A DNA stretch of 64,000 nucleotides from Candidatus Parcubacteria bacterium (GTDB lineage: Bacteria > Patescibacteriota > Patescibacteriia > Patescibacteriales > UBA12075), in NCBI GenBank assembly GCA_002869165.1, contig PKTK01000001.1, positions 251,362 through 315,361 on the forward strand. The letters are read 5' to 3'. The position numbers and the translations under genes are program-made. The notes under the pieces are model-generated. The model was not told the origin of the DNA and did no database searches. It was given only the letters and a program-made list of their open reading frames with translations. Of the stretch, positions 6,715 to 21,344 are shown piece by piece (position 1 is the first letter of the stretch; the number at the start of each line of letters is the position of its first letter).

Positions 6715-7302
6715 ATGGAAACAAATGTTTATCAAAAAGCCGAGAAAATTTATCCTCATGATAAATTGTTAGCTTTGACTTTTTTAAAATTAATTCCTGG
6801 GTTCGTGAAACCTAATCATTTAACTATTTTTAGGTTTTTAGCAACTCCCTTTTTAGTTGTTTTGATATATTGTGGGTGTTACAAGTTGGGTTTTTGGTTT
6901 TTTATAATTGTTTCTTTTTCTGATGCCTTGGATGGGGCAATGGCTAGAACAAGAGCACAAATCACTGAATGGGGGAAGGTGTATGACCCTCTAGCTGATA
7001 AAATATTGATAGCTAGTATGGTTTTTATGATTGCACTGCAGTTTATTGGATTTTGGGTAGCTATGCTTATAGTGGGACTCGAGATTATTATTATTATAGC
7101 TGCTTGGATCAGGAAGATTGAGGGAGGTGTAGTGCAGGCAAATTGGTTTGGTAAAATCAAAATGATACTACAGGTTTTAGGTGTGTCAGTGCTGATTTTG
7201 TCACATATATACGGATTTGTTTCAATGCTTACCTTGGCCTCAGGAGTTCTTTATTTGGCAATTATATTCGCAATTGTATCACTATTGACACATGGTGTTT
7301 AG
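6715..7302 (+). CDS. CDP-alcohol phosphatidyltransferase family protein
   Basis: SDALDGAMARTRAQITEWGKVYDPLADK matches the D-G-x2-A-R...G-x3-D-x3-D family signature; several TM helices. Confidence 0.8.
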   Translation: METNVYQKAEKIYPHDKLLALTFLKLIPGFVKPNHLTIFRFLATPFLVVLIYCGCYKLGFWFFIIVSFSDALDGAMARTRAQITEWGKVYDPLADKILIASMVFMIALQFIGFWVAMLIVGLEIIIIIAAWIRKIEGGVVQANWFGKIKMILQVLGVSVLILSHIYGFVSMLTLASGVLYLAIIFAIVSLLTHGV

Positions 7303-7366
7303 TGTTGTATATAATATTATTGAGAATAAAAGTTCTTTATAAAATATAATAAGGGAGGAAGGAGAA

Positions 7367-7723
7367 ATGAGTAGAAGACAAATATTAATACTAGACAACG
7401 AAATACCTATATTAACAATGCTTGATAGATATTTAAACAGTAAGGTAAAAAAGGTGTTGCTTGCTAGTAATATTGAGGAAGCAAAGGAAGCTATATTGAA
7501 TAATGAAATAAATATAGTATTATCAGATATTAATTTAGGAAATGGAAAAACAGGCTTTGATTTTTATAATTGGGTCTGTAGCAATGGATTATTTACAGGT
7601 ATAAAATATATTTTTATGTCGGCAAACATGTCAGGTGAAAGAATAAAAAAAATTAAAAATTTGCAATGTTTATATATTGAAAAACCTTTTAATCTAAAAA
7701 AGTTAGACGAAATTATTGAATGA
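7367..7723 (+). CDS. stand-alone response-regulator receiver (CheY-like) domain protein
   Basis: 118 aa; ILILDNE acidic pocket, SDINLGNGKTGFD phospho-acceptor region, conserved Lys near KPF. Confidence 0.65.
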   Translation: MSRRQILILDNEIPILTMLDRYLNSKVKKVLLASNIEEAKEAILNNEINIVLSDINLGNGKTGFDFYNWVCSNGLFTGIKYIFMSANMSGERIKKIKNLQCLYIEKPFNLKKLDEIIE

Positions 7724-7730
7724 AAACTCA

Positions 7731-7762
7731 AACCGCATGGTATTAGATCGTGCGGTTTTTTA
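7731..7762 (+). terminator. rho-independent terminator
   Basis: AACCGCATGGTATTAGATCGTGCGGTT hairpin followed by a T-run. Confidence 0.6.
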
Positions 7763-7810
7763 TTGCAAAAAAGTAGCTTTTTTGCTAATATAAAGTTAAA
7801 TAAATAGAGA

Positions 7811-9670
7811 ATGAAACTAAAAAAGAAGCTAAAAAAAGTATTTTTAAATAACTGGCAAATAATGGTAGTAATATTTGTGTGTTCGGGGTTTTTTTTGGCA
7901 ACAGCTAGTTTTAGCTATTATGTTCATGATTATTCAGATAATCCTGCAAAGAAACCAGATTTTGTAAAATGGCTGTCACCTGATGAAACTGCTAATTATA
8001 TATTTGCTAAATTATTTGCTCAAACAGGGAAATTGATTCTAGAAGAATCTTATAATGTCATAGCAGATGATATTATGAGGCCCAGAAGCTTTAGGTCTGA
8101 TAATGGTGAGATTAAGCCAGTGTCGTTTTTAGGAATTATTCTTATATACGGCAGTATTGCCAAAATTTTTTCATACAAGATAATACCTTATTTAACCCCG
8201 TTGCTTGCTTCTATTGGAATTTTTTATTTTTATTTATTTGTATCAAAAATTTTTGGTAAAAACATAGCATTTATTTCAGCCATACTTTTGAGCTTTTTCC
8301 CACCCTTAGTGTATTATACAGCTAGGAGTATGTTTCATAATGTCTTGTTCACTATGCTTTCTCTCGTATCATTGTTTTATTTGTACTTAGTAGCTGAAAA
8401 ACATAAACCAATTAAGCGTATAAAAAATTTGTACAGCAATAAGTTCTTTGAAAGTTATATTTATGCTGTATTGGCCGGTATATTTTTTGGTTTAGCAGCT
8501 ATTACTAGAACCTCTGAGTTACTTTGGTTATTACCTATGGTGGTAGTTCTGTATATATTTAATGTAAAAAAAGTAGGTTTTATTAAACCGGTTATTTTTT
8601 TGATTTTTGTTTTTGTAGCAATGACACCTATGTTTTATTTCAACCATAAACTTTATGGAAGTTATTATTTTGGAGGTTATCCAGAGATGAATGAATCAAT
8701 TTCTACTTTAGCCAAGTCTGGTTCTGAATTAATCAGTATAGAAAGTGTTGGAAATTTTGAACGACTAAAAAGTATTCTAAAAACCATTAAAAATACTATT
8801 TTTCATTTTGGATATGACTATGAACAAAGCAAATTAATGTTTGGTAAATATTTTAAAGAAATGTTTAGTTATTTGTATTGGGGTGCAGTTATTGGCTTTG
8901 TTTTGTTCTTATTTGCTTATAAAAAAATTAAATATAAGCATTTGGTTTATATTATTTTTTACAGTTTTATTAGTTTTATTTTAGTTTCGTATTACGGTTC
9001 ATGGGAATTTTTTGATAATCCAGACAAAGCGGCAGTTACCATAGGTAATTCCTATACTAGGTATTGGCTACCAGTTTATATGGGAGCTATTCCGTTTCTT
9101 GCAGTGTTGATTGTTAAATTTTCTAATATTATTAATTTAATTTTAAAAGTGCGAGTTATTGAGGAAGATGAAGACGGGGATAATGATCAAGAACAAGTTA
9201 GCCTTTTTTCAGAATCAAGAAAAACAGTTTATTCTAAAAATGCCTTACGTTTTATAATAGTGTCTGTTTTTGCAGTCTATTTTGCTCATTTTGTTTTGTA
9301 TGGCTCAGAAGAAGGACTTATTGTTACTGCCAAGAACGCTAAAGCAATGGAGTCTGAATGGTCAAAAGTGCTAGAATTAACCGAAGAAAACAGTGTTATA
9401 GTGACCAGGTATCACGACAAGCTGTTTTTTCCGGAAAGGAAAGTGGTGGTTGGTTTGTTTAACGATATTGAAATGAATGACCGTTATGCTGTGCTGGCCA
9501 ATGAACTGCCTATTTATTACTATAATTTTAGTTTTCGGGATGTTGATCTTGAATATTTAAATGAGAGAAGGTTAGCTGAATCAGGTTTAGGAATAGAATT
9601 AGTTGCTGAAATAAACGATAAGTTTTCTTTGTATAGATTATTTCTTGTAAATAATAATGAAGTTAATTAA
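7811..9670 (+). CDS. large polytopic membrane protein, possible GT-C fold glycosyltransferase (ArnT/PMT-like)
   Basis: 619 aa; about 10 TM helices in the N-terminal two-thirds and a soluble acidic C-terminal domain; immediately followed by a GT4 gene whose start overlaps its end. Confidence 0.45.
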   Translation: MKLKKKLKKVFLNNWQIMVVIFVCSGFFLATASFSYYVHDYSDNPAKKPDFVKWLSPDETANYIFAKLFAQTGKLILEESYNVIADDIMRPRSFRSDNGEIKPVSFLGIILIYGSIAKIFSYKIIPYLTPLLASIGIFYFYLFVSKIFGKNIAFISAILLSFFPPLVYYTARSMFHNVLFTMLSLVSLFYLYLVAEKHKPIKRIKNLYSNKFFESYIYAVLAGIFFGLAAITRTSELLWLLPMVVVLYIFNVKKVGFIKPVIFLIFVFVAMTPMFYFNHKLYGSYYFGGYPEMNESISTLAKSGSELISIESVGNFERLKSILKTIKNTIFHFGYDYEQSKLMFGKYFKEMFSYLYWGAVIGFVLFLFAYKKIKYKHLVYIIFYSFISFILVSYYGSWEFFDNPDKAAVTIGNSYTRYWLPVYMGAIPFLAVLIVKFSNIINLILKVRVIEEDEDGDNDQEQVSLFSESRKTVYSKNALRFIIVSVFAVYFAHFVLYGSEEGLIVTAKNAKAMESEWSKVLELTEENSVIVTRYHDKLFFPERKVVVGLFNDIEMNDRYAVLANELPIYYYNFSFRDVDLEYLNERRLAESGLGIELVAEINDKFSLYRLFLVNNNEVN

Positions 9671-10808
9671 TATGAAAAAATATAGAAAAATAATTGGAGT
9701 TGACGCACGTTTGTATGGACCTTTAGGAAAGGGATTGGGACGTTATATTGAGGAAATTGTAGATGGTGTTACTAGTGTTGATCAAGATCATGATTTTGTT
9801 ATTTTTTTGTCAGCAGGAAATTTCAGTGATTTTAAAGAAAAGAAAAATATAAAAAAAGTTTTAGTAAAATCTCGCTGGTACAGCTTAAGAGAGCAGATTG
9901 ATATGCCGTTTTTGATATGGAAAAATAAAATTGACTTAATGCATATACCACATTTTAATGTACCGATATTTATGCCGACTAAGTTTATTGTTACAATCCA
10001 TGATCTTATTTTAACCAAATTTCCTAGTCAACGAGCTAGTACTTTATCTCCAATTATCTATAAATTAAAATATACATTTTATAAAATTGTAATTAGTAGA
10101 GCTGTTAAAAAAGCAGAACATATAATTGCAGTATCAAATTTTACAAAAAAAGATATAGTAAATAACTTTAAAATATCTAGTGAAAAAGTTAAAACTATTT
10201 ATGAAGGAGTGAGCAAGAAATTTGTACAGCAAAATGACTTAGACGAAGAAGTGGTTTTGAAAAAATATAATATCAAGACACCCTTTTTGCTTTATGTGGG
10301 AAATGCTTACCCTCATAAAAATTTAAATAATCTTATCAGAGAATTTTTAGAATATAAAAAAGAAAATCCTGAGTATAATTTAGTTTTAGTTGGAGGAGAG
10401 GATTATTTTTACAAAAGAATTATAAATGATATTAAAGAAAACAATATCAGAGGAGTGATTTTTCCAGGATTTGTGCCTGATAATGAATTGGTTGTTCTTT
10501 ATAGAAAGGCTGAAATTTATGTTTTTCCTTCTCTTTATGAAGGATTTGGGCTACCACCGCTTGAAGCAATGAGTCAAAAATGTTTGGTTTTAAGTTCAAA
10601 CAAGTCTTGTTTACCAGAAATATTAGGGGAATCTGCTGTTTATTTTGATCCTAATGAGAAGCATTGGTTAAAAGATTCAATGAAAATAATAAAGAAAAAT
10701 TCTTTTGATAAAGAAAAAATAATCGAAAATAGCAAAGAACAAGTAAAAAAGTATTCTTGGGAAAGAGCAGTTAAGGAAACTTTAGAGTTGTATAATAGAT
10801 TTATTTAA
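9657..10808 (+). CDS. glycosyltransferase family 4 (GT-B fold)
   Basis: 383 aa; C-terminal EGFGLPPLEAMSQKCLVLSS motif typical of GT4/GT1 retaining transferases. Confidence 0.85.
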   Translation: MKLINMKKYRKIIGVDARLYGPLGKGLGRYIEEIVDGVTSVDQDHDFVIFLSAGNFSDFKEKKNIKKVLVKSRWYSLREQIDMPFLIWKNKIDLMHIPHFNVPIFMPTKFIVTIHDLILTKFPSQRASTLSPIIYKLKYTFYKIVISRAVKKAEHIIAVSNFTKKDIVNNFKISSEKVKTIYEGVSKKFVQQNDLDEEVVLKKYNIKTPFLLYVGNAYPHKNLNNLIREFLEYKKENPEYNLVLVGGEDYFYKRIINDIKENNIRGVIFPGFVPDNELVVLYRKAEIYVFPSLYEGFGLPPLEAMSQKCLVLSSNKSCLPEILGESAVYFDPNEKHWLKDSMKIIKKNSFDKEKIIENSKEQVKKYSWERAVKETLELYNRFI

Positions 10809-10940
10809 TATAAGCTAAAAATAAAAAAATAGTTATAAATAGATTGACTTTTTTATAAATATATGGTATAAATGTATGTTATTTAAACATACATTTTTTT
10901 GTTCATTTTATTAAAAACCATATATTTAGGAGGATTTATC

Positions 10941-12128
10941 ATGACCTGGACAGGAGAGTATTTTGAAATTTGTATAGAGTTGGAAAAAGTTAGAGAGAGG
11001 AGTTTGACAATTGGTACTCATAGATTGCCACATGCCAATGAAATTGGTGCCTGTTTTCTTTTGCAAAACTATGCTACTAATAAGCGTTTAGTTGAAGAAT
11101 GCGTTGAAGGACAGCTTATGCTTGGTATTGGTGGAGGTAAGTTTGATCATCATAGCTTAAACAATGAGACCACTTGTTATGATCTGATAGCCGAAGCTTT
11201 TGGCTGTAAATACAAGAAACTCGAGCATATTCGTGTCTTTATCGCCGATAATAACAACAATGGCGCCAAGGGCATGATAAACATCGCTTCATTGTATAAG
11301 GCCATGAATACAATGTGGTCAAACGACGAATCGGTTTCTGAAAATATTGCCTGGTTTTTGCGGGCCTTAAACCTTAAGTCAACTGATACCGGAAAACATG
11401 CCAATGATTTCAGTCAAGAAAGAATTATTGAGCTTTCTAAGTCGTGTAGTGATTTTGATTACTTCATGTCCAATGAGAAATGGATTGAGAGAGCTGTTAA
11501 TACTGAGAAGGCTTGGCAAGGTGAGTTTTTTGATCAAGCCTGTCGTGAACTTGAGAATCTTGATTCTCAGGGACTTGTAAGAGAGGCTCATGGCCTTTTC
11601 TTTATAAAGAATGGAAAAGGAAAGTCAAAAGCAATCAAGCCTAAAATTTGTGGTGTGATGTCGAGTCATGTTCGTATGGCAACGGCACTACGTGTCAAGA
11701 AGCAAGCGGATGTTTTTCTCGTTTATAATCCGACTACTAAATATTATCTTATCGGTGTAAACAAAAACACATTCAGGCATTACCGTGATGCTTTGCTTGA
11801 AGTATTTAAAATTTTACAAGTCAATGAAAAAAGAGTCGGTTCAGATCCAGATAGATGGTACTATTTTAAACCAGCTATCAATATTTATAATGGCTCATTG
11901 ACTCATCCGCATATTAAGCCAAGCGCTTTGAAGTTCGGTGAAGTTTTTGCAGCTGTTTGTGTCGGTATGAAACAAGATGCCCTCCCAAAATCATGTGACG
12001 GGAAAAACTGTTATTCCTGTTTTCTCTCATCTGCTTGCCTTTATAGGTGTAAGAGAAGGGTAGACATACAAAAAACTCGTGAAAAAAGCGAAAGAAAAAA
12101 CATACCGCAGATTGTTTTGGCTGTATGA
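10941..12128 (+). CDS. MYG1/UPF0160-like metal-dependent hydrolase (tentative)
   Basis: Start chosen at ATG 10941 behind RBS AGGAGG; IGTHRLPHANEIGACFLL and GGGKFDHH resemble the GTHxGxFHxDE...ACxLL and GGxYDHHQ signatures of UPF0160; C-terminal Cys-rich tail. Confidence 0.45.
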   Translation: MTWTGEYFEICIELEKVRERSLTIGTHRLPHANEIGACFLLQNYATNKRLVEECVEGQLMLGIGGGKFDHHSLNNETTCYDLIAEAFGCKYKKLEHIRVFIADNNNNGAKGMINIASLYKAMNTMWSNDESVSENIAWFLRALNLKSTDTGKHANDFSQERIIELSKSCSDFDYFMSNEKWIERAVNTEKAWQGEFFDQACRELENLDSQGLVREAHGLFFIKNGKGKSKAIKPKICGVMSSHVRMATALRVKKQADVFLVYNPTTKYYLIGVNKNTFRHYRDALLEVFKILQVNEKRVGSDPDRWYYFKPAINIYNGSLTHPHIKPSALKFGEVFAAVCVGMKQDALPKSCDGKNCYSCFLSSACLYRCKRRVDIQKTREKSERKNIPQIVLAV

Positions 12129-12133
12129 TTCAT

Positions 12134-12175
12134 AGCCTCGTATTTCTTTTTTGAAATATGAGGCTTTTTCTTTTG
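12134..12175 (+). terminator. rho-independent terminator
   Basis: AGCCTCGTATTTC...AAATATGAGGCT hairpin followed by a T-run. Confidence 0.55.
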
Positions 12176-12246
12176 AAAAAATATCTTTAATCTGTTATAA
12201 TAATAGCAATTAACTTATCCACATTTTCCATAAAGCAACACCCTAA

Positions 12247-14964
12247 ATGCTTGAAAAACAGAGGAAAGTACAGCTTAATATTTCTCAAAAAAGATCTAGG
12301 TCAAATTATTTAGTAGATTTAGGTAAAGAATTTGAAAAAACTGATGATCTGGAGAAAAATGAAAAGAACATTTTTTTAGAAAAAAAAGATGGTCTTTTTT
12401 TGTTTTTAAAAAATAAAAGTAATTTTGTAAGTTCAAGTACTTCTAAAACAGTCTTGCTTTTTGAGAGCAACAGTTTTTTAAAAAATATAGTAAACAAGAT
12501 AAGAAGACTAGTTTTTATTCAATTAATCATGGCTTTGATTTTGTTTATTTGGAAAGGCCTTTTATTTGTTTTGAATATTGCTTACAACATTGGGTATTCT
12601 TTTGTTTTTGTTTGCAAGTTTTTGTTCTTTTTCTTTGTAATTGCTTTTTCAAAAATATTTAATTTATTTAACACCAAAAAAGAAACTGTTTCGGAAGAGA
12701 TTGCCGAACAGAAAAACGAGTACCATTTTGATATTGATGATTTTAATTTTGCTCTGCAAGACTCAAAAAAAGTAACTTTTGAAAAAGAGATTGAAGAGAA
12801 AACTGAAGAGATAGTTTCTGAGCCAGTTATTTCAAAAGAAGATAAGAAAATAAAGAAAAAATTCAAACAATTAAAATTAATACAATCCAGAAAATCATAT
12901 AGAGATTTTTTAGATTCTTTACTTCCAAAACCAGACAAAATTTTTTTGCGACCAGCAATAGCTTTTGCAATGGTCCTTTTTATTTTGGTTTTACTTTTTA
13001 AAGCGCTAACTTATTATGGCGTGATAAATGATTTAAAAGGGAGGGTTTTGGGGGTTTCCGAAGAGGCTGTTGGTGATATTAAGAATGCTGGTAATTATGC
13101 TACTGAGCTTGATTTTTCTCAAGCAAGCCTAGAATTTGCTCAAGCTAGTGAAAATTTCTCCAAAGCTCAGGAGGAAATTGGAGTGGTTAGTAAATTCTTG
13201 CAAGTGCTACAAAAATTAATTCCTAATTCAAAGATAGAATTAGCAGCTGATGCTGAATATGTTTTGGAATCAGGAAAAATTAGTTCAGAGATTGGTAAAG
13301 AAGTTAGCCAGATGTTTGTTAATTTCTCTGAATTAGAAGAAAAAAGCATAGCAAATGTTTATTTGGTTTTTTCAGAGTCAATTTTCAAATTAAGAATATT
13401 AACTGAAGACTTGTACCAAAATGTTTCTCAAATAGATTCAGAAAATATTCCTTTAGAGCATCAAGAAACTTTTAATTTGACATTAGAAAAGACCAGACAA
13501 ATCAGGGATAGTTTTAAGGAGTTAAGTCTTTTAATGGAAGACTTTCGGGTGTTTTTAGGTTTTGAAAGTGAAAAAAGATATTTATTAATTTTTCAAAATA
13601 ATTCTGAAATGAGAGCTAGTGGAGGCTTTATGGGAAGTTTTGCTTTAGTTGATTTTCGAAATGGGGAATTAGTGAATATTGAAGTGCCTGAAGGGGGTAC
13701 CTATGATACAGAAGCAGGACTACTTGATCGTATAATATCTCCTGAACCTATGCATATAGTAAATCCACTTTGGCACTTATGGGATTCAAACTGGTGGCCT
13801 GATTGGAAAAAGAGTGCTAAGAAAATAGAATGGTTTTATGAGCGTAGCGATGGTTCAAGCGTGGATGGAGTAATTGCTTTTACTCCTGATGTAGTTGAGA
13901 ATTTGCTTAGAGCAATGGGCCCACTTGATATGCAGAAGACACATGGTGTAACGATCGATGCAGATAATTTTTGGGAAGTGACTCAAACCTTTGCTGAAGC
14001 AAAACCAGAAACTCACCCAGCCTATGAACCATTGCCATATACTCCAGAGAACAAGGCTAGTGGTACAAGTATTATGGAGGCGGGGAATAACAATAAACCT
14101 AAAAAGATAATAGGAGATTTGATTGCTGTTATCAAAGAAGAACTTCCTTTGAGACTCAACAAGGATATGTTTTTGGAGATTTTAGCTGGAGCAGAAAGAA
14201 GCTTGGCGGCTAAGCATGTGTTGTTTTATTTTGATGATTGGCAATTGCAAAATAAATTTGAACAACTTGGTTGGGCTGGTAGGATAGAAGAAACTTCATG
14301 GGATTATTTGATGGTTGTTAACACAAATATTTCTGGAGGGAAAAGCGACCGGGCAATTGAGCAAGAGATAAGTCATAATGCAGAATTACAAAGCGACGGT
14401 TCAATAGTGGACACTTTAACTATAGCCAGAACTCATACTGGAGAAAAGGGAGAGGAGTTTGTGGGAGTTAAAAATCTTGACTGGATGAGAATTTATGTTC
14501 CTTTGGGAAGTGAGTTTATTGAGGCAAGTGGTTTTTGGCCACCTAGTGAAGAGTTGTTTGAAGACCCTGAAGAAGGTTGGTTAGAAGACCCTGATTTAGA
14601 AAATGAAAAAAGTTTTACTAGAGACAGAATATCTTGGACTAAGATCTATAATGAGAGTCAAAAAACTGTTTTTGCTAATTGGGCTCAAGTTGATCCAGGA
14701 AAGACGGTGGTGATTACCATAAAATATAAATTACCATTCTCACTTGATATGAATACACCTCCAACAAAGGAACTTGGTGCCTATGCTTTATTTTTACAAA
14801 AACAACCAGGTGCAAAAAGCTGTAATATTGAATCAAGCCTAGTATTGTCTGATGAGGTAAGACCTATTTGGCATTATCCAGAAGATCTGAACACGGGGGT
14901 GTATGGCTGGCACAGAGAAGATGTTTTGGATGAAGATAAATATTACGCAGTTAGACTCAAATAG
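12247..14964 (+). CDS. giant membrane-anchored protein of unknown function (possibly DUF4012-like)
   Basis: 905 aa; two TM segments (about residues 90-130 and 225-250), a long coiled/acidic region, a conserved-looking core YLLIFQNNSEMRASGGFMGSFALVDFRNGEL, and a C-terminal globular domain rich in W and D. Confidence 0.6.
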   Translation: MLEKQRKVQLNISQKRSRSNYLVDLGKEFEKTDDLEKNEKNIFLEKKDGLFLFLKNKSNFVSSSTSKTVLLFESNSFLKNIVNKIRRLVFIQLIMALILFIWKGLLFVLNIAYNIGYSFVFVCKFLFFFFVIAFSKIFNLFNTKKETVSEEIAEQKNEYHFDIDDFNFALQDSKKVTFEKEIEEKTEEIVSEPVISKEDKKIKKKFKQLKLIQSRKSYRDFLDSLLPKPDKIFLRPAIAFAMVLFILVLLFKALTYYGVINDLKGRVLGVSEEAVGDIKNAGNYATELDFSQASLEFAQASENFSKAQEEIGVVSKFLQVLQKLIPNSKIELAADAEYVLESGKISSEIGKEVSQMFVNFSELEEKSIANVYLVFSESIFKLRILTEDLYQNVSQIDSENIPLEHQETFNLTLEKTRQIRDSFKELSLLMEDFRVFLGFESEKRYLLIFQNNSEMRASGGFMGSFALVDFRNGELVNIEVPEGGTYDTEAGLLDRIISPEPMHIVNPLWHLWDSNWWPDWKKSAKKIEWFYERSDGSSVDGVIAFTPDVVENLLRAMGPLDMQKTHGVTIDADNFWEVTQTFAEAKPETHPAYEPLPYTPENKASGTSIMEAGNNNKPKKIIGDLIAVIKEELPLRLNKDMFLEILAGAERSLAAKHVLFYFDDWQLQNKFEQLGWAGRIEETSWDYLMVVNTNISGGKSDRAIEQEISHNAELQSDGSIVDTLTIARTHTGEKGEEFVGVKNLDWMRIYVPLGSEFIEASGFWPPSEELFEDPEEGWLEDPDLENEKSFTRDRISWTKIYNESQKTVFANWAQVDPGKTVVITIKYKLPFSLDMNTPPTKELGAYALFLQKQPGAKSCNIESSLVLSDEVRPIWHYPEDLNTGVYGWHREDVLDEDKYYAVRLK

Positions 14965-17469
14965 ATGCAAAATATTAGTTATACAACAAATACTTATCCA
15001 AAAGATATGCTTTATATTGATACGGGCATGTTGATTTTTTTGTTTATAATATTTTTCTTTTTGTTAGGCTTTTTCTTAATACGCTTTTTTATGCGTAAAA
15101 ATCATGACAGAACAAATAGGAGTGACATGGTGATTCAAAAGATTAGAGTTCCAAAAGAGAAGCCAGGTGAAGCAAATAGAGAATACAATGTACAAATGCT
15201 TCACGAGGAGATAGCTAGGGCAGAAACTGTTTTTGCAAGTATTGGTGGTCTACAAGCAGAAAGAGGTTTTGTTGCTTGGTTTTTTGGTCGTAATGATCAC
15301 TACTCTTTCGAAATTGTAGCTAACAAAAAAACTATTTATTTTTATATTGTTACTCCTATTGGAATGCAAAGATACATTGAGCAACAGGTACATGCACATT
15401 ATCCTGAAGCAGTGATTGAAGAAGTTGATGACTATAATATATTTGAAAGTAACTCATATGTAGCTTCAGGTTCCCTAAAAACTAAGCGCAAAGGATTTTT
15501 GCCGATTAAAACTTATAAGAACATGGAAACAGATGCTATGAATTCTATAATTAATGTACTTTCAAAACTTAAGGATAGTGAGAGTATTGCAATTCAGTTT
15601 GCAGTTCGAAGTGCAAAAGCAAGCTGGCACAATGATGCCTCAAAAGTACGGAAAGCAATTAGTAAGGGCAAATCTTTACCAGAGGCTATCAAGCTAGCTG
15701 GTAAGGGAATGTTTGGCGAGATAATCGGTGAAGCTTTTAGTAGTGCGAAAAAAGACATGGACCAAAATTCTAATATGCATAACAGGCTCACAACTATGGA
15801 AGAGGAGATTTTGAAATCTATCGAAGAAAAGAATTCTAAGGCTGGTTTGGATGTCAACATTAGAATTATTGTTAGCACCAAAGATAAAGCCAGTTCTTCG
15901 ATTTATATCTCTAATTTAGCCAGTGCTTTTTCACAATTTAGTTTATATGAGAATGGAAATAGCTTTCCTAATAAAATAAAAGTAAAGCAAAATCCTAGCA
16001 TAGTAAGCGATTTTATTCACAGAAGATTTAATGAGCAGAGTTCTTTTCTTTTGAATACTGAGGAATTGGCTAGTATTTATCATTTTCCTTTACGTAATTC
16101 AGAGACTCCTAATATTGATTGGCTAAAAGCCAAGCAAGCCCCAGCTCCAAGTAACATTCCTAATGTTGGTGTTATTCTAGGTTATAACATCTATCGTGGC
16201 CAAAGATCTGATATTAAGATTTCTAGGGCAGATAGGAGAAGACATATGTATGTTTTAGGAAAGTCTGGTGTTGGTAAGTCGAAATTGATTGCCAATATGG
16301 CAGTACAAGATATTTTGAATGGTGAAGGTGTTTGCATAATGGATCCGCATGGTGATTTGATAGATGATTGTTTGAAAAGAATTCCACCAGAACGGGCCGA
16401 AGACGTGATTATTTTTTCACCAGCTGACTTTGAAAGACCACTAGCACTTAACTTAATGGAATATGATATTAGATACCCAGAACAGAAAACTTTTATAATA
16501 AATGAGATGATAAATATTTTTGATAAGCTTTATGATTTGAAATCAACTGGTGGGCCAATCTTTGAACAATATATGAGAAATGCAATGTTGTTAGTAATGT
16601 CTCATCCAGAGTCAGGCTCAACTCTCATGGAGATACCAAGAGTATTAGCAGATCCTGAATTCAGAAAAATGAAGCTAAGTAATTGCAATGATGCTACTGT
16701 GGTGGATTTTTGGCGCAAAGAAGCTGAGAAAGCCGGGGGAGATGCAGCGTTAGCTAATGTTGTCCCATATATAACTAGTAAATTGACTCAATTTATTTCT
16801 AATGACACTATGAGACCAATTATTGGTCAACAGAAGAGCTCATTTAATTTTCGAGATGTTATGGATTCACAAAAGATTTTATTAGTTGATTTATCCAAAG
16901 GGCAAATTGGTGAGCTCAACTCTCATCTCTTGGGAATGATTATTGTTGGTAAGATTCTTATGTCAGCTCTTTCTCGAGCGGATATGCGAGAAGAAAGCAG
17001 AAAAGATTTTTATTTATATATTGATGAATTTCAAAATTTTACCACTGATTCAATTTGCTCAATTCTTTCAGAAGCTAGAAAGTATGGACTCAATCTAATT
17101 ATTGCTCATCAATACATTTGTCAATTAGTCAAAAATCAAGATACAGCTATCAGAGATGCAGTGTTTGGTAATGTGGGTTCCTGGATTACTTTTAAAATAG
17201 GCTCGGATGATGCAGAGGTTTTGGAAAAGGAATTTTCTCCTGTCTTCAATCAATTTGATTTACTTAACATTGAAAAATATACTGCTTATTCAAAAATACT
17301 GATAGATAATACAGCCAGTCGACCATTTTCTATGATGACCCCATGGCCTTTGGCAGGACAGGAAAGAGATGACATAAAAACAAAAATTGCAAAACTTTCT
17401 CGATTAAAATACGGTCATGATAGGCAAATGGTTGAAGCCTTGATAAAAAAAAGAACCCAATTTTTATAA
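14965..17469 (+). CDS. VirD4/TraG/TraD-like (type IV coupling protein family) or HerA-like P-loop ATPase with N-terminal TM helix
   Basis: 834 aa; N-terminal TM (LIFLFIIFFFLLGFFLIRFF); Walker A YVLGKSGVGKSKL followed by a DPHGD motif; Walker B LYIDEFQNF. Confidence 0.65.
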   Translation: MQNISYTTNTYPKDMLYIDTGMLIFLFIIFFFLLGFFLIRFFMRKNHDRTNRSDMVIQKIRVPKEKPGEANREYNVQMLHEEIARAETVFASIGGLQAERGFVAWFFGRNDHYSFEIVANKKTIYFYIVTPIGMQRYIEQQVHAHYPEAVIEEVDDYNIFESNSYVASGSLKTKRKGFLPIKTYKNMETDAMNSIINVLSKLKDSESIAIQFAVRSAKASWHNDASKVRKAISKGKSLPEAIKLAGKGMFGEIIGEAFSSAKKDMDQNSNMHNRLTTMEEEILKSIEEKNSKAGLDVNIRIIVSTKDKASSSIYISNLASAFSQFSLYENGNSFPNKIKVKQNPSIVSDFIHRRFNEQSSFLLNTEELASIYHFPLRNSETPNIDWLKAKQAPAPSNIPNVGVILGYNIYRGQRSDIKISRADRRRHMYVLGKSGVGKSKLIANMAVQDILNGEGVCIMDPHGDLIDDCLKRIPPERAEDVIIFSPADFERPLALNLMEYDIRYPEQKTFIINEMINIFDKLYDLKSTGGPIFEQYMRNAMLLVMSHPESGSTLMEIPRVLADPEFRKMKLSNCNDATVVDFWRKEAEKAGGDAALANVVPYITSKLTQFISNDTMRPIIGQQKSSFNFRDVMDSQKILLVDLSKGQIGELNSHLLGMIIVGKILMSALSRADMREESRKDFYLYIDEFQNFTTDSICSILSEARKYGLNLIIAHQYICQLVKNQDTAIRDAVFGNVGSWITFKIGSDDAEVLEKEFSPVFNQFDLLNIEKYTAYSKILIDNTASRPFSMMTPWPLAGQERDDIKTKIAKLSRLKYGHDRQMVEALIKKRTQFL

Positions 17470-17608
17470 ATACCCGAGAATGTCTTCGGGCATTTTAATA
17501 ATTAGACAAACCTAAAAAAATAGTATAATATAAAAAAGTAAACAAAAAGCAAAACTAGTATTTGGATGAATTAAAATAATTTCTATATTATCCAATTAAA
17601 ATAAATAT

Positions 17609-18292
17609 ATGTCAAAAACAAATTTATTAATTGACGAAAACGAAAAAACAGAAAACAATGAGGTTGATGATCTAGATATTCAATCTGATTATCAAGAAGA
17701 AAATAAAAACCAAGACGAAAGTCAAGACGGTGTTTATATTAGTAAGTCAAAATTGGCGATTGTTTCTAGTTTGCTAGATAATATTAAGGAGAGCCAAGAA
17801 AAGATTGTTGAATTGATGTCAGGTTATGTTGGCCCAGACAATGAAGCTAAAATTAGTATTGGGCAAATGATGCCAGGTAGTAAAACCATGGCATCAGAAA
17901 TGAAAGAAGGAGAATCAAGAGTGGTAGAGGGTGTTTTTGATGGTGAAAACATGATTGGTCCCGATGGCAGACAATACTCAGTTCCGGCCAATTATGCTTC
18001 AAAGTCAAAATTAGTAGAGGGCGACATTCTTAAGTTGACTATTACTGGCAAAGGAACTTTTGTGTACAAGCAAATTGGTCCAATTGAAAGAGAAAGGGTG
18101 ATAGGTCTACTTGAGCAAACCGAAAATGGTAATTTTATTGTTAAGGCGGATGACAAAGAATGGCGAGTAATCACAGCTTCAGTTACTTATTATAAAGGAA
18201 AAGATGGAGATGAAATTATTATTTTGGTGCCAAAGGTTGGTGAGAGTAAATGGGCGGCAGTTGAAAACATTGTTAGAAAAACAGATAAATAA
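17609..18292 (+). CDS. hypothetical protein with acidic N-terminus
   Basis: 227-aa ORF with coding-like composition; no recognisable motif. Confidence 0.5.
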   Translation: MSKTNLLIDENEKTENNEVDDLDIQSDYQEENKNQDESQDGVYISKSKLAIVSSLLDNIKESQEKIVELMSGYVGPDNEAKISIGQMMPGSKTMASEMKEGESRVVEGVFDGENMIGPDGRQYSVPANYASKSKLVEGDILKLTITGKGTFVYKQIGPIERERVIGLLEQTENGNFIVKADDKEWRVITASVTYYKGKDGDEIIILVPKVGESKWAAVENIVRKTDK

Positions 18293-18488: not shown

Positions 18489-20204
18489 ATGAAAACTTTA
18501 TATAGAACCTACAGACCTCAGAATTTTGAAGAGATTGTAGGGCAAAATCATATAAAAATTACTTTAGAGCACGAGCTGGAAAATAATCGAACAGCGCATG
18601 CTTATATTTTTTGTGGTCCGCGTGGAGTGGGCAAGACTACTATAGCCAGGATTTTTGCTAAATCATTGAATTGCGAAAACAGAAAAGAAGGTGAGTCTAA
18701 TCATTGTAACAAATGTCACTCATGTAAAAACATTACTAGTGGAAGCAATATAGATGTGATTGAAATAGATGCTGCAAGTCATACTGGAGTTGATAATGTA
18801 AGAGAGAATATCGTTTCTGTTTCTCGAGTTGTGCCAAGTCAGGGTAAGTTCAAAGTTTTTATTATTGATGAGGTGCACATGCTATCAATCTCAGCTTTTA
18901 ATGCACTTCTTAAAGTTTTAGAAGAACCACCAGCTAATGTAGTTTTTGTTTTAGCTACCACAGAAGTTCATAAAATTCCCGATACAATAATTTCTCGAAC
19001 AGAAAGATTTGATTTTAAACGTATTAGTATAAATGATGTAGTGAAGAAATTAAATTATATCGTAACCAAAGAAAAGATTAAAATAGATAAAAGTATTTTG
19101 GAAAGCGTAGCCAGACACTCAGAGGGACATATGAGAGATGCTGAGAGTTTACTTGGACAAATTGTTGCAATTGGAGGAAAGAATATAAATCAAGAGGATG
19201 CAGATTTAGTTATCCCACGTTCAGATATTGAAGAAGTTTTGAAGTTTATTGATTTGATTAGCAATCATGATGCTAGTCATGCTATAGAGCAAGTAAATGC
19301 TTTGCTAGACGAAGGGGTGAGTATAAAAAGATTTTTAGAAGAAATAATTGAAACGCTTAGAAAGATAATGTTACTTAAACTTGATAAAAATATTGGCTCA
19401 AAACTTGGACTTGAAATGTGTGAACAAATTGAGATAAGAGTAAATGAATTAGCACAAAATTTTGATATAAATTATGTTATCAAGGTAATTGAGAGACTCT
19501 TGCAAGTAGATAAAGAGTCAAAGGGGGCATTCATAATTCAACTTCCTTTGGAAATTGCTATTGCTGAATTATGTATTGGCACCAATTCTGCATCAGTTCC
19601 TAGTTCAAATTTCAGAAATTTAAATAAGATAAATTCAGTAAGTAGTAAAACTGTTAATATGCAGGCAAATAATAATAAAAATGAAACGATAAAAGAAATA
19701 GTACAAGAAACAATTGCTAAAACGGAAGAGATGGTAGTTGATGAAAATTTTATAGCTATAAGCAAAGACGAGATACATGGAAAGTGGAATGAGTTTTTGA
19801 GTAATATCAAGGCTCATAATCACTCTCTTTCTTTTATTCTTCGAGCTTGCCAACCAAAAAACATTGAAAATAACCAGCTTTGCCTAGCTTTCAAGTATAA
19901 ATTTCACAGAGATAGAGTGAGTGAGATTAATATTAAAGAAATAATTGAAAAAGTCCTAAGAGAAGTATACGGCCAGATTATCAGTATAGAAGCGATTGTG
20001 GATGAAAAACTAAAAGTAGAAAACAATACTCAAGCTGAAGTCAAGTCAGGAAACACTGAAGAACAAAATGAAGAAGCAGTAAATGATCAGTTAAACACCA
20101 ATGAATTAAAATCAGAAGAAAAAAATAAAGGAGAGTATCAGGGATCTGATGATGATATGTTGAATAGTGTTCTCAAGACTTTTGGTGGTAAAATTGTAAG
20201 TTAA
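18489..20204 (+). CDS. dnaX: DNA polymerase III subunit gamma/tau
   Basis: 571 aa; YRPQNFEEIVGQ, Walker A GPRGVGKTT, zinc module CENRKEGESNHCNKCHSC, SRT sensor motif (IISRTERF). Confidence 0.92.
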   Translation: MKTLYRTYRPQNFEEIVGQNHIKITLEHELENNRTAHAYIFCGPRGVGKTTIARIFAKSLNCENRKEGESNHCNKCHSCKNITSGSNIDVIEIDAASHTGVDNVRENIVSVSRVVPSQGKFKVFIIDEVHMLSISAFNALLKVLEEPPANVVFVLATTEVHKIPDTIISRTERFDFKRISINDVVKKLNYIVTKEKIKIDKSILESVARHSEGHMRDAESLLGQIVAIGGKNINQEDADLVIPRSDIEEVLKFIDLISNHDASHAIEQVNALLDEGVSIKRFLEEIIETLRKIMLLKLDKNIGSKLGLEMCEQIEIRVNELAQNFDINYVIKVIERLLQVDKESKGAFIIQLPLEIAIAELCIGTNSASVPSSNFRNLNKINSVSSKTVNMQANNNKNETIKEIVQETIAKTEEMVVDENFIAISKDEIHGKWNEFLSNIKAHNHSLSFILRACQPKNIENNQLCLAFKYKFHRDRVSEINIKEIIEKVLREVYGQIISIEAIVDEKLKVENNTQAEVKSGNTEEQNEEAVNDQLNTNELKSEEKNKGEYQGSDDDMLNSVLKTFGGKIVS

Positions 20205-21117: not shown

Positions 21118-21188
21118 TCGGAGATCGTCTAATGGTAGGACTCGAGGTTCTGGTCCTCGCTATCGGGGTTCGAATCCCTGTCTCCGAG
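21118..21188 (+). tRNA. tRNA-Gln (anticodon CUG)
   Basis: Manual cloverleaf: acceptor TCGGAGA/TCTCCGA (U1:A72, typical of bacterial tRNA-Gln), D-stem GTCT/GGAC, anticodon stem CGAGG/CCTCG with loop TTCTGGT, T-arm CGGGG-TTCGAAT-CCCTG, discriminator G; no encoded CCA. Confidence 0.8.
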
Positions 21189-21344
21189 CAAATTTATGAG
21201 CACCCTATTTGGGTGCTTTTAAATTTGTTTGGTGGCAGGTTTGAGAACCCTTACTAACACACATGTTAAAATAATTTAATTAAAAAATTATAGCTTAAAT
21301 ATGGATAACGGCACCTTTGTTGGTGAGAATCCCTGTCTCCGAGC
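21189..21344 (+). repeat. about 155-bp repeat unit, copy A: tRNA terminator hairpin, internal AT-rich segment, 18-nt copy of the tRNA-Gln 3' end
   Basis: GAGCACCCTATTTGGGTGC terminator at 21198; GAATCCCTGTCTCCGAGC at 21327-21344 is identical to 21172-21189; near-identical to 25849-25996. Confidence 0.8.

Follow-up and report, generated by a model that had tools for sequence, protein, structure and literature searches.

Three consecutive genes at one locus of Candidatus Parcubacteria bacterium raise the question of whether a DUF4012 membrane protein, a conjugation-type ATPase and a small acidic protein make up a single translocation device. The window, that is the whole stretch of 64,000 nucleotides that was analysed, carries these genes on the + strand at 12247-14964, 14965-17469 and 17609-18292, encoding 905, 834 and 227 aa, respectively. 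The frames are too long for chance, in DNA of 31-35% GC, and have thousands of homologues. Both the three frames and the absence of a gap between the first two (a TAG stop followed at once by ATG, AAATAG then ATG) were described in an earlier sequence-only reading and are confirmed here. That reading joined the genes into one module. Our analysis leads instead, with moderate confidence, to two independently conserved gene sets lying side by side: an envelope glycan set and an orphan type IV coupling protein (T4CP) that would serve a membrane conduit.

The product of the second gene is a VirD4/TrwB-type coupling protein. Its Pfam matches comprise TrwB_AAD_bind (E=1.3e-9), T4SS-DNA_transf, TraG-D_C and DUF87, all over their gathering scores, and nothing outside the T4CP and DUF87 families was found: FtsK_SpoIIIE and T2SSE are absent at E<=0.01, and AAA_10 and CagE_TrbE_VirB are not reported at the same threshold. 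The NCBIfam TraD and VirD4 models match far under their cut-offs. TrwB is the sole sequence match in the PDB, and a Foldseek search with the full-length model retrieves TrwK/VirB4 (E=1.3e-11), TrwB (E=1.4e-10, TMt 0.62) and also Cag-beta. Together with homology to relaxase-adjacent ATPases, these families and structures bear out the coupling-protein call made from the letters alone; tested against a grouping with FtsK or PilB/GspE, the protein groups with coupling proteins instead.

More specifically, the T4CP begins with a single transmembrane (TM) helix at aa ~20-45 (15022..15099; hydropathy, with a model helix at 20-53) followed by a basic stretch, and its ATPase domains are predicted to be cytoplasmic. 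Next comes a DUF8128 domain (PF26449 in precomputed Pfam annotation; aa 54-403, 15124..16173), modelled with a pLDDT of 82.5 and a pTM of 0.83; every one of its ten best matches among solved structures is TrwK/VirB4, and these are its sole significant ones (E=1e-5 to 4e-4, TMq 0.39-0.45). The remainder, defined by Pfam and the model (16174..17469), is a TrwB-like nucleotide-binding domain with an all-alpha insert at aa ~507-634. It holds every motif previously quoted for this gene, namely Walker A (16258-16281, with YVLGKSGVGKSKL at aa 429-441), DPHGD (aa 460-464, 16342-16356) and Walker B YLYIDEFQNF (aa 683-692, 17011-17040), and these motifs are invariant among 59 homologues. A short G+C-rich hairpin directly past the stop codon (17473..17490, + strand) is a weak terminator candidate.

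The family is also represented in 314 plasmid records and in 22 records from Bacillus-group phages. BLASTP aligns aa 85-795 of the window T4CP with WP_345805471 from the B. subtilis plasmid NZ_CP154917 (E=4e-57, 25% identity), the first gene of an operon that continues with Replic_Relax, TcpC, TcpE and an AAA_10 (VirB4-like) gene. A homologue on the Embleya linear plasmid NZ_CP108778, WP_331738717, has the same arrangement with a Replic_Relax relaxase. Judged by sequence, such relaxase-adjacent ATPases of conjugation operons are the nearest family whose genomic context can be interpreted; a literature search found no experimental work on either of the two proteins.

To place the gene within its own phylum, we compared ATPase-centred loci from 80 related genomes, where gene order is conserved as a small 160-aa protein, the T4CP, the acidic protein and dnaX, among housekeeping genes that include cysS, corA, rpmA, serS and pyrG. 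The 160-aa protein lies directly 5' of the T4CP in 61 of the 80 loci, at a median distance of 4 nt. The acidic protein lies 3' of the T4CP in 44 and dnaX, encoding DNA polymerase III tau/gamma (18489..20204 in the window, + strand; Pfam), in 65, the median distance to dnaX being 17 nt in loci where no gene intervenes. The 160-aa protein is absent from the whole window, where its place is held by the DUF4012 gene with its 0-nt gap. Relatives of the T4CP occur in at least 590 GTDB species-representative genomes, with 47-76% identity to the window copy across Falkow-, Uhr-, Magasanik-, Komeili-, Kerfeld- and Moranbacteria, and this identity exceeds that of DnaX in 58/58 loci. Its GC content is that of its surroundings, and a single distant match was found in 2.9 M viral contigs. 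What emerges is a domesticated ATPase, of a type that supplies conjugation machines with DNA or proteins, whose gene is strongly conserved on the chromosomes of ultra-small Patescibacteria.

The third gene (17609..18292, + strand) encodes a Patescibacteria-specific protein, recognised from its homologue set and conserved columns, that is as acidic as had been described (pI 4.7; 31% D+E in the first 45 aa). Its N-terminal tail is acidic and contains a conserved DDL(D/E) motif; a helix comes next, and then a highly conserved C-terminal domain (aa ~101-227). None of its at least 8000 homologues has a Pfam match, and no match was found in plasmids or phages.

With the plasmid proteins as tblastn queries, neither the window nor the DNA within 10 kb of the T4CP at the 80 loci yielded a homologue of VirB4, relaxase, TcpC, TcpE or PrgI, and no integrase is among the annotated genes around the ATPase. 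The earlier statements that other type IV secretion system (T4SS) components are missing nearby and that this is not a canonical conjugation locus therefore hold, the former for the 64-kb window and the Bacillus plasmid VirB4-like, relaxase, TcpC and TcpE queries. Orphan T4CPs in Patescibacteria have already been published: Quinonero-Coronel et al. 2025 report 5,713 VirD4-type homologues in 2,918 genomes, 148 of the homologues lying near virB4, describe chromosomal relaxase-less T4SSs as widespread in the phylum and raise exaptation of the T4CP as a possibility (PMC12102498). The window T4CP very probably belongs among these homologues. That text has no mention of dnaX and, in the passages available, none of the small and acidic partner proteins or of the DUF8128 domain, and as far as the literature was available we found no earlier description of the dnaX-linked operon or of the DUF8128 observations.

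We propose that the gene at 14965-17469 is a vertically inherited chromosomal orphan coupling protein which, like its relatives, would form a membrane-anchored, ATP-driven ring that recruits a protein or DNA substrate and pushes it toward a membrane conduit. The conduit would most probably be the relaxase-less T4SS common elsewhere on Patescibacteria chromosomes, which for the window genome is assumed from the literature. The 160-aa protein of most lineages, missing here, and the acidic 227-aa protein may be adaptors or cargo. In S. epibionticum, the t4cp homologue is reported to be dispensable for epibiotic growth while T4SS genes are essential (PMC12102498); if that homologue is an orthologue, the T4CP would not be needed for the essential job of the T4SS.

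A secretion role does not account for the tight and widespread linkage to dnaX. That linkage, and the stronger conservation of the ATPase than of DnaX, would suit a T4SS-independent DNA motor that pumps chromosomal or incoming DNA, for instance in uptake or, in the manner of FtsK, in late chromosome segregation at the septum. The motor would be co-expressed with the clamp-loader gene dnaX, and the acidic protein would be a putative DNA- or replisome-binding adaptor; two loci that lack the T4CP or have it elsewhere (L133, L060) keep the acidic protein by dnaX. The housekeeping neighbourhood, the small share of T4CP genes near virB4, the exaptation left possible by the authors cited above and the Bacillus and Geobacillus phage relatives outside any T4SS context point the same way. 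However, the T4CP has neither an FtsK-type motor signature nor a gamma domain, an ftsK is annotated in TM7x, which likewise belongs to Patescibacteria (PMC10768705), so that a replacement is not obviously needed, and the dnaX gene order may reflect mere co-transcription or old synteny. We consider this explanation rather unlikely.

Turning to the first gene, the DUF4012-like call proved correct (Pfam E=3.2e-27, 96 bits against a cut-off of 28), and the previously quoted YLLIFQNNSEMRASGGFMGSFALVDF is found at aa 445-470. Two details of the sequence-only reading did not stand: hydropathy gives three hydrophobic stretches rather than two TM segments, and the supposed acidic coiled region is, at aa 150-225, a linker of mixed charge (D+E 0.25, K+R 0.21). 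From hydropathy and charge, the predicted layout is a cytoplasmic N-terminus, a probable hairpin (aa ~81-143), the charged linker and a TM segment (aa ~230-261), which would leave a domain of ~650 aa outside the cell bearing the DUF4012 core (aa 442-580). We know of no DUF4012 protein with a known biochemical function.

The neighbours of this gene are themselves conserved. In the window, a run of envelope-glycan genes opens with a PMT_2-type (GT-C) glycosyltransferase (7811..9670, + strand; Pfam PMT_2, E=3.6e-6), a homologue of which lies 5' of GT4-DUF4012 in 18 of 80 DUF4012 loci, and ends with DUF4012 itself. The most conserved neighbour is the GT4 glycosyltransferase (9657..10808, + strand; Pfam Glycos_transf_1, E=4e-30), found at position -1 in 60/71 loci, mostly with 46-53% identity to the window GT4; a DUF11-repeat TM protein occupies position +1 in 54/69. 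Between GT4 and DUF4012, the window has a soluble 409-aa protein (10899..12128, + strand) whose place is not conserved: Pfam, NCBIfam, PADLOC and PHROG gave no match, and one weak match was found among 80 DUF4012 loci. Elsewhere, the gene set sometimes comes straight after the dcw cell-wall cluster, as in one locus ordered mraZ-rsmH-PBP-murF-rmlD-rmlA-GT2-...-GT4-DUF4012. A Rhodococcus plasmid carries a DUF4012 gene (WP_197486178) amid GT4, an ABC exporter, a priming sugar transferase and rfbABC, and a B. longum DUF4012 protein lies within an exopolysaccharide (EPS) cluster (PMC5412050). The enrichment of DUF4012 in Patescibacteria is already published. We hypothesize that the genes at 7811-14964 (PMT_2, GT4, the 409-aa gene and DUF4012) form a set for the assembly of cell-envelope glycans or glycoproteins, in which DUF4012 most likely works on a surface sugar polymer or glycoprotein once the polymer is out of the cytoplasm.

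The module of the sequence-only reading would have the T4CP as cytoplasmic motor and DUF4012 as the part outside the cell of a single device that spans the envelope and works in export or import, whether or not the acidic protein belongs to it. Locally, the 0-nt junction speaks for it, as does a terminator-like and promoter-like pair 5' of DUF4012 together with the hairpin after the T4CP: a hairpin of 13 pairs and a T run directly past the 409-aa gene (12134..12165, + strand) is a consensus match of a kind whose total number is not above that in shuffled sequences, and the best + strand promoter-like site (12173..12201, TTGAAA-17-TATAAT with an extended TG, 11/12 matches to consensus) lies 46 nt 5' of the DUF4012 start. 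However, DUF4012 lies directly by the T4CP in 1 of the 80 ATPase-centred loci, and the T4CP directly after DUF4012 in 1 of 49 DUF4012-centred loci; both cases (L006 and L089, with 67-68% ATPase identity) are close relatives of the window genome. Since DUF4012 also has partners of its own (GT4, the DUF11-repeat protein and, in a minority of loci, the PMT_2 transferase), the neighbourhood comparison comes close to finding that the 905-aa protein is never co-localised with the ATPase in relatives. The most frequent partners of the ATPase are the small upstream protein and dnaX, and of the proposed three-gene module it is the recurrence of the acidic protein by the ATPase that stands.

Looser associations keep the module idea alive, though weakened. 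A stand-alone DUF8128 protein lacking the ATPase domain lies directly 5' of GT4-DUF4012 in about 25 of 80 loci, overlapping the GT4 start by 8 nt, and other lineages (L065, L067, L075 and L080) have DUF4012 at a distance of 4-8 kb from the T4CP, in the first three 4.4 kb 5' of it on the same strand; some functional tie between DUF8128 and the DUF4012 cluster is thus possible. Against this, the two genes occur within 10 kb in ~6% of loci (5/80), a share that does not clearly stand out from the 2-3% that chance alone would give (a rough estimate for a genome <1 Mb), and phylogenetically these loci do not count as independent cases. In both plasmid conjugation loci that were inspected, no DUF4012 gene adjoins the T4CP homologue; DUF4012 is found in 5 plasmid records against the 314 of the ATPase family, and outside Patescibacteria it resides in polysaccharide clusters that lack an ATPase of this type. 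The extra N-terminal part of the window DUF4012 also occurs in loci without a T4CP and is unmatched in L089, which has one. A conserved DUF4012-T4CP device is, in our judgement, distinctly unlikely; under the preferred reading of two neighbouring gene sets, the abutment and probable co-transcription would be a lineage-specific rearrangement.

That the ATPase is a decaying remnant of an integrated conjugative element or prophage, without host function, is highly improbable: the frequency of the family on plasmids and in Bacillus-group phages would fit, but it is contradicted by synteny with housekeeping genes in most of 80 species, the level of identity with all catalytic motifs invariant, a GC content matching the flanks, near absence from viral contigs and the lack of relaxase, Tcp-type T4SS (tblastn, window and loci) or annotated integrase genes around it. 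A HerA-type or defence ATPase, such as the mad8 component of MADS, is hardly credible, given that PADLOC mad8 (E=5e-13), weak HerA matches, Foldseek HerA (E about 5e-10) and DUF87 over the Walker A region are surpassed in both quality and length by the matches to TrwB, VirB4 and plasmid T4CPs, that other defence models have no match in the neighbouring genes tested, and that the protein has a membrane anchor, an all-alpha insert and core-gene behaviour.

Among known systems, the coupling protein, as part of the preferred pair of gene sets, is homologous along its whole length, across both the DUF8128 and ATPase regions, to the relaxase-adjacent ATPases of Tcp/ICEBs1-like Gram-positive and actinobacterial operons. 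The plasmid ATPases adjoin Replic_Relax, the Bacillus locus having also TcpC, TcpE and AAA_10 and the Embleya locus PrgI-family and ATP-binding genes, whereas the Patescibacteria T4CP has no such relaxase, Tcp, VirB4-like or PrgI genes nearby. The phrog_5156 phage proteins (Bacillus phage G gp156, SP-10, Geobacillus GBK2_32 and D6E ORF23) are full-length relatives with 20-25% identity (profile E=3e-82, positions 76-805 of 824); in D6E and GBK2, the two inspected, they lie 3' of lysis genes, in D6E just ahead of an integrase, and the phage relatives have no dnaX or acidic-protein partners.

With TrwB of R388 and Cag-beta of H. pylori, the T4CP shares the P-loop, Walker A and B, the all-alpha insert and an N-terminal anchor, in keeping with its VirD4/TrwB-type Pfam domains and the TrwB match at TMt about 0.6. 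Unlike in these proteins, ~350 extra residues (DUF8128) separate its TM helix from the ATPase domain. VirD4/TrwB-type coupling proteins usually have two TM helices; the window T4CP has one and, unlike those systems, is chromosomal, vertically inherited and part of a dnaX operon with no T4SS or relaxase genes nearby. Its two-domain layout of about 800 aa resembles VirB4 (R388 TrwK), which has the lowest E-value when the whole model is searched with Foldseek, but the domain-level TM-scores are modest, the ATPase domain fits T4CP profiles and there is no sequence similarity to the VirB4-like protein of the B. subtilis plasmid (E>3). FtsK/SpoIIIE, HerA and T4CPs belong to the same broad superfamily of ring ATPases; HerA is among the structural matches of the T4CP, whereas an FtsK_SpoIIIE Pfam match is lacking and no NurA partner is among the annotated neighbours. 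The DUF4012 protein, for its part, shares its Pfam domain with B. longum BL105A_0406, Rhodococcus WP_197486178 and the CPR family fam000574 (Meheust 2019). It differs from these by its extra N-terminal hydrophobic hairpin and charged linker, and it is followed by a T4CP where the usual follower elsewhere is a DUF11-repeat protein. Like the proteins of Gram-positive polysaccharide clusters, it is associated with GT4 and sugar-nucleotide genes.

Three genes follow one another on the forward strand of the window, encoding a 905-aa DUF4012 protein (12247-14964), an 834-aa ATPase whose ORF starts at the base after the TAG stop of the first (14965-17469) and a 227-aa acidic protein (17609-18292), with dnaX downstream (18489-20204, also forward). 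Coordinates and lengths given for these ORFs in the sequence-only reading are exact, and the motifs it quoted for the first two are all found in the translations. That reading proposed a single translocation module; we favour, with about even confidence, two conserved gene sets juxtaposed by a lineage-specific rearrangement, namely an envelope-glycan set ending in the DUF4012 gene, and a domesticated type IV coupling protein (T4CP, here the ATPase) with its acidic partner and dnaX. GC content in the window is low (0.27-0.37), and its single tRNA gene, tRNA-Gln(CTG), is at 21118-21189. Each 2-kb block has positive GC skew and almost every gene is on the + strand, which places the window on one replichore. 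Close homologues of its proteins come from Patescibacteria (CPR), the nearest relatives being Falkowbacteria.

The ATPase is a coupling protein carrying an extra domain. Two Pfam models, TrwB_AAD_bind (E=1.3e-9, profile covering aa 418-746) and T4SS-DNA_transf (E=1.3e-8), match above their gathering scores, TraG-D_C and DUF87 also match, and the sole PDB match by sequence is TrwB; scores against the NCBIfam TraD and VirD4 models fall far under their cut-offs. Walker A (aa 432-439) and Walker B (aa 683-688) are intact, and these motifs are invariant in 59 homologues. In the AlphaFold model (pLDDT 78.7), the TM helix leads into an alpha/beta N-domain (aa ~55-400), after which comes a P-loop domain whose stretch from Walker A to Walker B includes an inserted segment made up only of helices (aa ~507-634). 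Hydropathy gives one strongly hydrophobic segment, aa 13-45, and the modelled helix spans aa 20-53. Foldseek against the PDB placed full-length TrwK/VirB4 first (E=1.3e-11, ~940 aligned columns, TM 0.30) and TrwB second (E=1.4e-10, TMt ~0.6 (0.62)), followed by Cag-beta and HerA. The initial 'VirD4/TraG-like' call is correct.

The extra domain (aa 54-403) is Pfam DUF8128 (PF26449, a precomputed assignment). Modelled alone (pLDDT 82.5, pTM 0.83), it has as its ten best PDB matches only TrwK/VirB4 chains (E=1e-5 to 4e-4, TMq 0.39-0.45), with no other significant PDB match; a literature search for DUF8128 gave no result. These structural matches point to a probably VirB4-like layout; the ATPase domain is VirD4-type by sequence.

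Several other identities find little support. For a VirB4-type C-terminal ATPase, neither AAA_10 nor CagE_TrbE_VirB matched in Pfam at E<=0.01, and BLASTP against two plasmid VirB4-like proteins gave E>3. FtsK/SpoIIIE was set aside given no FtsK_SpoIIIE Pfam match at E<=0.01, its absence from the listed best PDB matches and the single TM helix, and PilB/GspE given no T2SSE match in Pfam or NCBIfam; the ATPase thus groups with neither of the two families that the sequence-only reading had named as contrary outcomes. As to HerA, Pfam DUF87 covers only aa 425-499 and no NurA family occurs among the annotated neighbours. Neither the window nor the 2.5 Mb of fetched loci gave a match to the E. coli FtsK motor, a result that carries no weight, as these loci sample two neighbourhoods only.

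Peptide patterns derived from the ATPase retrieved at least 590 relatives in GTDB species-representative genomes, of which the best 80 loci were analysed. Identity to the window T4CP ranges from 47 to 76% (median 53%), and exceeds DnaX identity in 58/58 loci holding both genes. Clustering of the genes in the 80 loci gives a conserved order of small ~160-aa protein, T4CP, acidic protein and dnaX, flanked by cysS, corA, rpmA, serS, pyrG, alr and a Dus-type gene. The small protein is helical, lies directly upstream of the T4CP in 61/80 loci (median gap 4 nt) and has a conserved C-terminus ('...KKWLxLIPGxNKFFLEQEAKIKADKI'); dnaX is downstream in 65/80 (median gap 17 nt where immediately next), and the acidic protein in 44/80, which bears out its pairing with the T4CP as a recurrent one. 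The window keeps the downstream half of this operon, that is, the acidic protein and dnaX. The usual place of the small protein is occupied there by DUF4012, and an HMM search of all six frames with filters off found no copy in the window (best E=0.35). Linkage to dnaX favours reading the T4CP as a DNA motor operating apart from any T4SS and linked to replication, segregation or uptake, a reading that we consider unlikely.

By homology, the T4CP would form a ring anchored in the membrane and act as a motor that takes on protein or DNA as its substrate, and its natural conduit would be the relaxase-less chromosomal T4SS common in the phylum, whose presence in this genome is presumed. By tblastn with plasmid proteins, no VirB4-like, relaxase, TcpC, TcpE or PrgI homologue was found in the 64-kb window or within 10 kb in the 80 related loci; the first reading had likewise seen no VirB4, VirB6 or relaxase nearby. 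This separation fits the count published for 2,918 Patescibacteria genomes, in which only 148 of 5,713 VirD4-type homologues are near virB4 (PMC12102498). The same paper describes the T4CP copy of S. epibionticum as dispensable, with exaptation left possible by the authors; dnaX is not mentioned in its text.

Variants of the operon were also observed. At L015:3694-6726, the small protein and T4CP are fused in one 1010-aa ORF; the fusion, if real, would put the small protein across the TM helix from the ATPase. Possible readings are an extracellular location for the small protein, a helix that does not cross the membrane, or an error in MAG assembly. Two T4CP paralogues of 820 aa and 737 aa stand in tandem at L060:9455-21302, the second with an ATPase domain 42% identical to that of the window, and extra genes of no known family are inserted before the acidic protein and dnaX. 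In five loci (L069, L079, L080, L082, L083), the small protein upstream is a different one and the T4CP has very large proteins of 876-1261 aa in its vicinity; the large proteins at these loci and at L060 have no informative Pfam match. Finally, many GTDB MAGs with the typical operon (L009, L011, L013 and others) are TPA assemblies titled 'uncultured Gammaproteobacteria bacterium'. These titles are evidently a labelling artefact, which makes the taxa named in them unreliable.

The acidic protein (pI 4.7, no hydrophobic TM stretch by hydropathy) belongs to a very large, Patescibacteria-only family. It has no Pfam, NCBIfam, PADLOC or PHROG match, no PDB profile match and no match on plasmids or in phages. 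At L133:6048-11178, the acidic protein and dnaX come immediately after a DUF4012 gene and no T4CP intervenes, an order showing that the acidic protein can remain with dnaX without the ATPase.

The first gene belongs to DUF4012 (PF13196) as initially called, scoring 96.2 bits against a cut-off of 28 (E=3.2e-27, aa 442-580), and its core residues Y445, Q450, N451, N452, E454, R456, G459, G460 and F461 do not vary across 6 diverse homologues. It was described as having two TM segments; a membrane protein it is, with three hydrophobic stretches by hydropathy, a hairpin at aa ~81-143 and a TM segment at ~230-261. Upstream in the window, Pfam identifies a PMT_2 (GT-C) and a GT4 glycosyltransferase. 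Between GT4 and DUF4012 lies a 409-aa protein (10899-12128) with a Cys-rich C-terminus, no family match and a position not conserved in relatives; its motifs 'IGTHRLPHANE...GGGKFDHHS' presumably recall MYG1/UPF0160-type metal-dependent hydrolases. A 636-aa protein on the minus strand (4763-6673) has no Pfam match. In related DUF4012 loci a homologue (36% identity) precedes PMT_2 and is encoded on the other strand, and the envelope gene set may therefore start at ~4763.

A metagenome scan seeded with a DUF4012 alignment yielded 80 loci with a neighbourhood of their own. GT4 is at position -1 in 60/71 loci, a ~660-aa TM protein with DUF11-type repeats at +1 in 54/69, tgt at +2 in 28/52, and a PMT_2 transferase upstream in 18/80; the DUF11-repeat partner was not found in the window. 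On one long contig, the cluster runs straight on from division and cell-wall (dcw) genes, in the order mraZ-rsmH-PBP-murF-rmlD-rmlA-GT2-(Sigma70_r4/HARE-HTH)-DUF8128-GT4-DUF4012-DUF11-like-tgt. At L173:1-21446 and L105:1794-17606, a DUF8128-only/GT4/DUF4012/DUF11-repeat cluster directly follows mraZ-rsmH-PBP-murF and rmlD, rmlA and GT2 (dTDP-rhamnose), preceded by a 345-aa protein (Sigma70_r4, weak HARE-HTH match) and followed by tgt, pyruvate kinase and enolase. DUF4012 occurs on only 5 plasmids, in a polysaccharide cluster on one from Rhodococcus, and the B. longum member sits in an EPS locus (PMC5412050). Given the GT4 and DUF11 partners, the continuation from dcw genes and the polysaccharide clusters elsewhere, DUF4012 is best read as an envelope-glycan assembly protein; Meheust et al. 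found it CPR-enriched and guessed an envelope role.

Does the window pair nevertheless form one combined device, as the sequence-only reading proposed? We think this improbable, somewhat more so than a DNA motor. Ahead of the DUF4012 gene are a hairpin resembling a terminator (12134-12165) and the best promoter-like site (12173-12201), and after the T4CP gene comes a weak hairpin, so the two genes are probably co-transcribed. However, full-length T4CP and DUF4012 are close together in only ~6% of loci, and these cases are phylogenetically clustered. Direct adjacency was seen in one of the 80 ATPase-centred loci (L006) and one of the 49 DUF4012 loci with enough downstream sequence (L089); DUF4012 is 4-8 kb from the T4CP in L065, L067, L075 and L080. 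An N-terminal extension of the window DUF4012 was considered as a correlate of adjacency and rejected, being present also in loci without T4CP and unmatched in L089 with it.

The stand-alone DUF8128 proteins form a sizeable family. In ~25 of the 80 DUF4012 loci, a ~490-aa protein with a TM helix and DUF8128 and no ATPase domain is encoded just upstream of GT4, overlapping the GT4 start by 8 nt in L105; it matches aa 87-399 of the window ATPase (E=1e-20). The 120 best matches are 461-527 aa long, almost all with PF26449 as sole Pfam domain, and several are named Falkowbacteria; no such paralogue was found in the window. At L071:10506-13383 (CAIRBL010000062.1), a stand-alone DUF8128 gene (11712-13241, 509 aa) comes after one of Sigma70_r4/HARE-HTH-like type, and 5 nt later a separate ORF begins 'MNQDINFF...DDRRRHMYVIGKTGMGKSTLLE', a T4CP Walker A region, and runs off the contig end. 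With these two ORFs 5 nt apart, the pair looks like a split second T4CP paralogue; the contig also carries a full T4CP operon, 8 kb upstream. Together with the ~25 loci and the co-transcription signals, L071 keeps alive the idea that DUF8128 proteins and the DUF4012 cluster are functionally connected. Speculatively, and with a probability lower again than that of the combined device, DUF8128 proteins may have a so far overlooked role in building the Patescibacteria envelope, the full T4CP and its split or ATPase-lacking paralogue working with the GT4-DUF4012-DUF11 cluster after the dcw genes and exporting or assembling a surface glycoprotein or polymer without a T4SS. If so, a coupling protein from conjugation would have been remodelled into a housekeeping motor of a new type, for secretion or assembly, and its most compact form would be the window DUF4012-T4CP pair.

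A mobile-element remnant (GC as in the flanks, conserved synteny, 47-76% identity, near-absence from viral contigs) and a defence ATPase (PADLOC mad8 and HerA matches restricted to the ATPase, the neighbouring genes tested matching no other defence model) are very improbable even taken together.

That Patescibacteria have orphan T4CPs and that DUF4012 is enriched in CPR is already published. In the literature examined, we found no earlier report of the small-protein/T4CP/acidic-protein/dnaX operon, its conservation above DnaX, the VirB4-like matches of DUF8128, or the stand-alone or split DUF8128 paralogue beside GT4-DUF4012. In the host-dependent lifestyle of Patescibacteria, envelope machines such as type IV pili and the relaxase-less T4SS are central. 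A T4CP conserved beyond DnaX, in a housekeeping operon and far from T4SS genes in the loci examined, is a strong candidate for an important function, and the small protein, acidic protein, dnaX and stand-alone DUF8128 paralogue offer concrete interaction and knockout targets in the few cultivable, genetically tractable strains. For annotation, the two-set reading separates genes that resemble one module in this genome, and supports an envelope-polysaccharide role for a CPR-enriched family.

Relatives of the ATPase outside Patescibacteria include phage proteins (phrog_5156, E=3e-82) from Bacillus, Geobacillus and Lysinibacillus phages, several annotated 'MsbA' or hypothetical. Phage D6E (6866-9124), phage GBK2 (6665-9235) and Bacillus phage G (gp156) encode full-length proteins with DUF8128 and ATPase; in D6E and GBK2 the gene is downstream of lysis genes, and in D6E immediately before the integrase. 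Among 2.9 million viral contigs, the ATPase peptide patterns recovered a single distant relative. Plasmids that encode a full-length relative (aa ~85-800, 24-26% identity) number 314, including 90 from Bacillus, 65 from Streptomyces, 27 from Staphylococcus and 23 from Clostridium, as well as some from haloarchaea and Sulfolobus. A B. subtilis plasmid has the relative at the head of a Tcp-like operon, ahead of the genes for a Replic_Relax relaxase, TcpC, TcpE and a VirB4-like ATPase (AAA_10); the window ATPase matches this relaxase-adjacent protein at E=4e-57 (aa 85-795) and the VirB4-like protein of the same plasmid at E>3. On an Embleya linear plasmid, the relative sits between a VirB4-like gene and a Replic_Relax relaxase. 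As far as homology goes, these searches of annotated collections settle the family as that of the coupling proteins. T4CPs usually have two N-terminal TM helices, whereas the window ATPase has one; it is homologous to the proteins that hold the coupling-protein position in real conjugation operons of Bacillus and Embleya.
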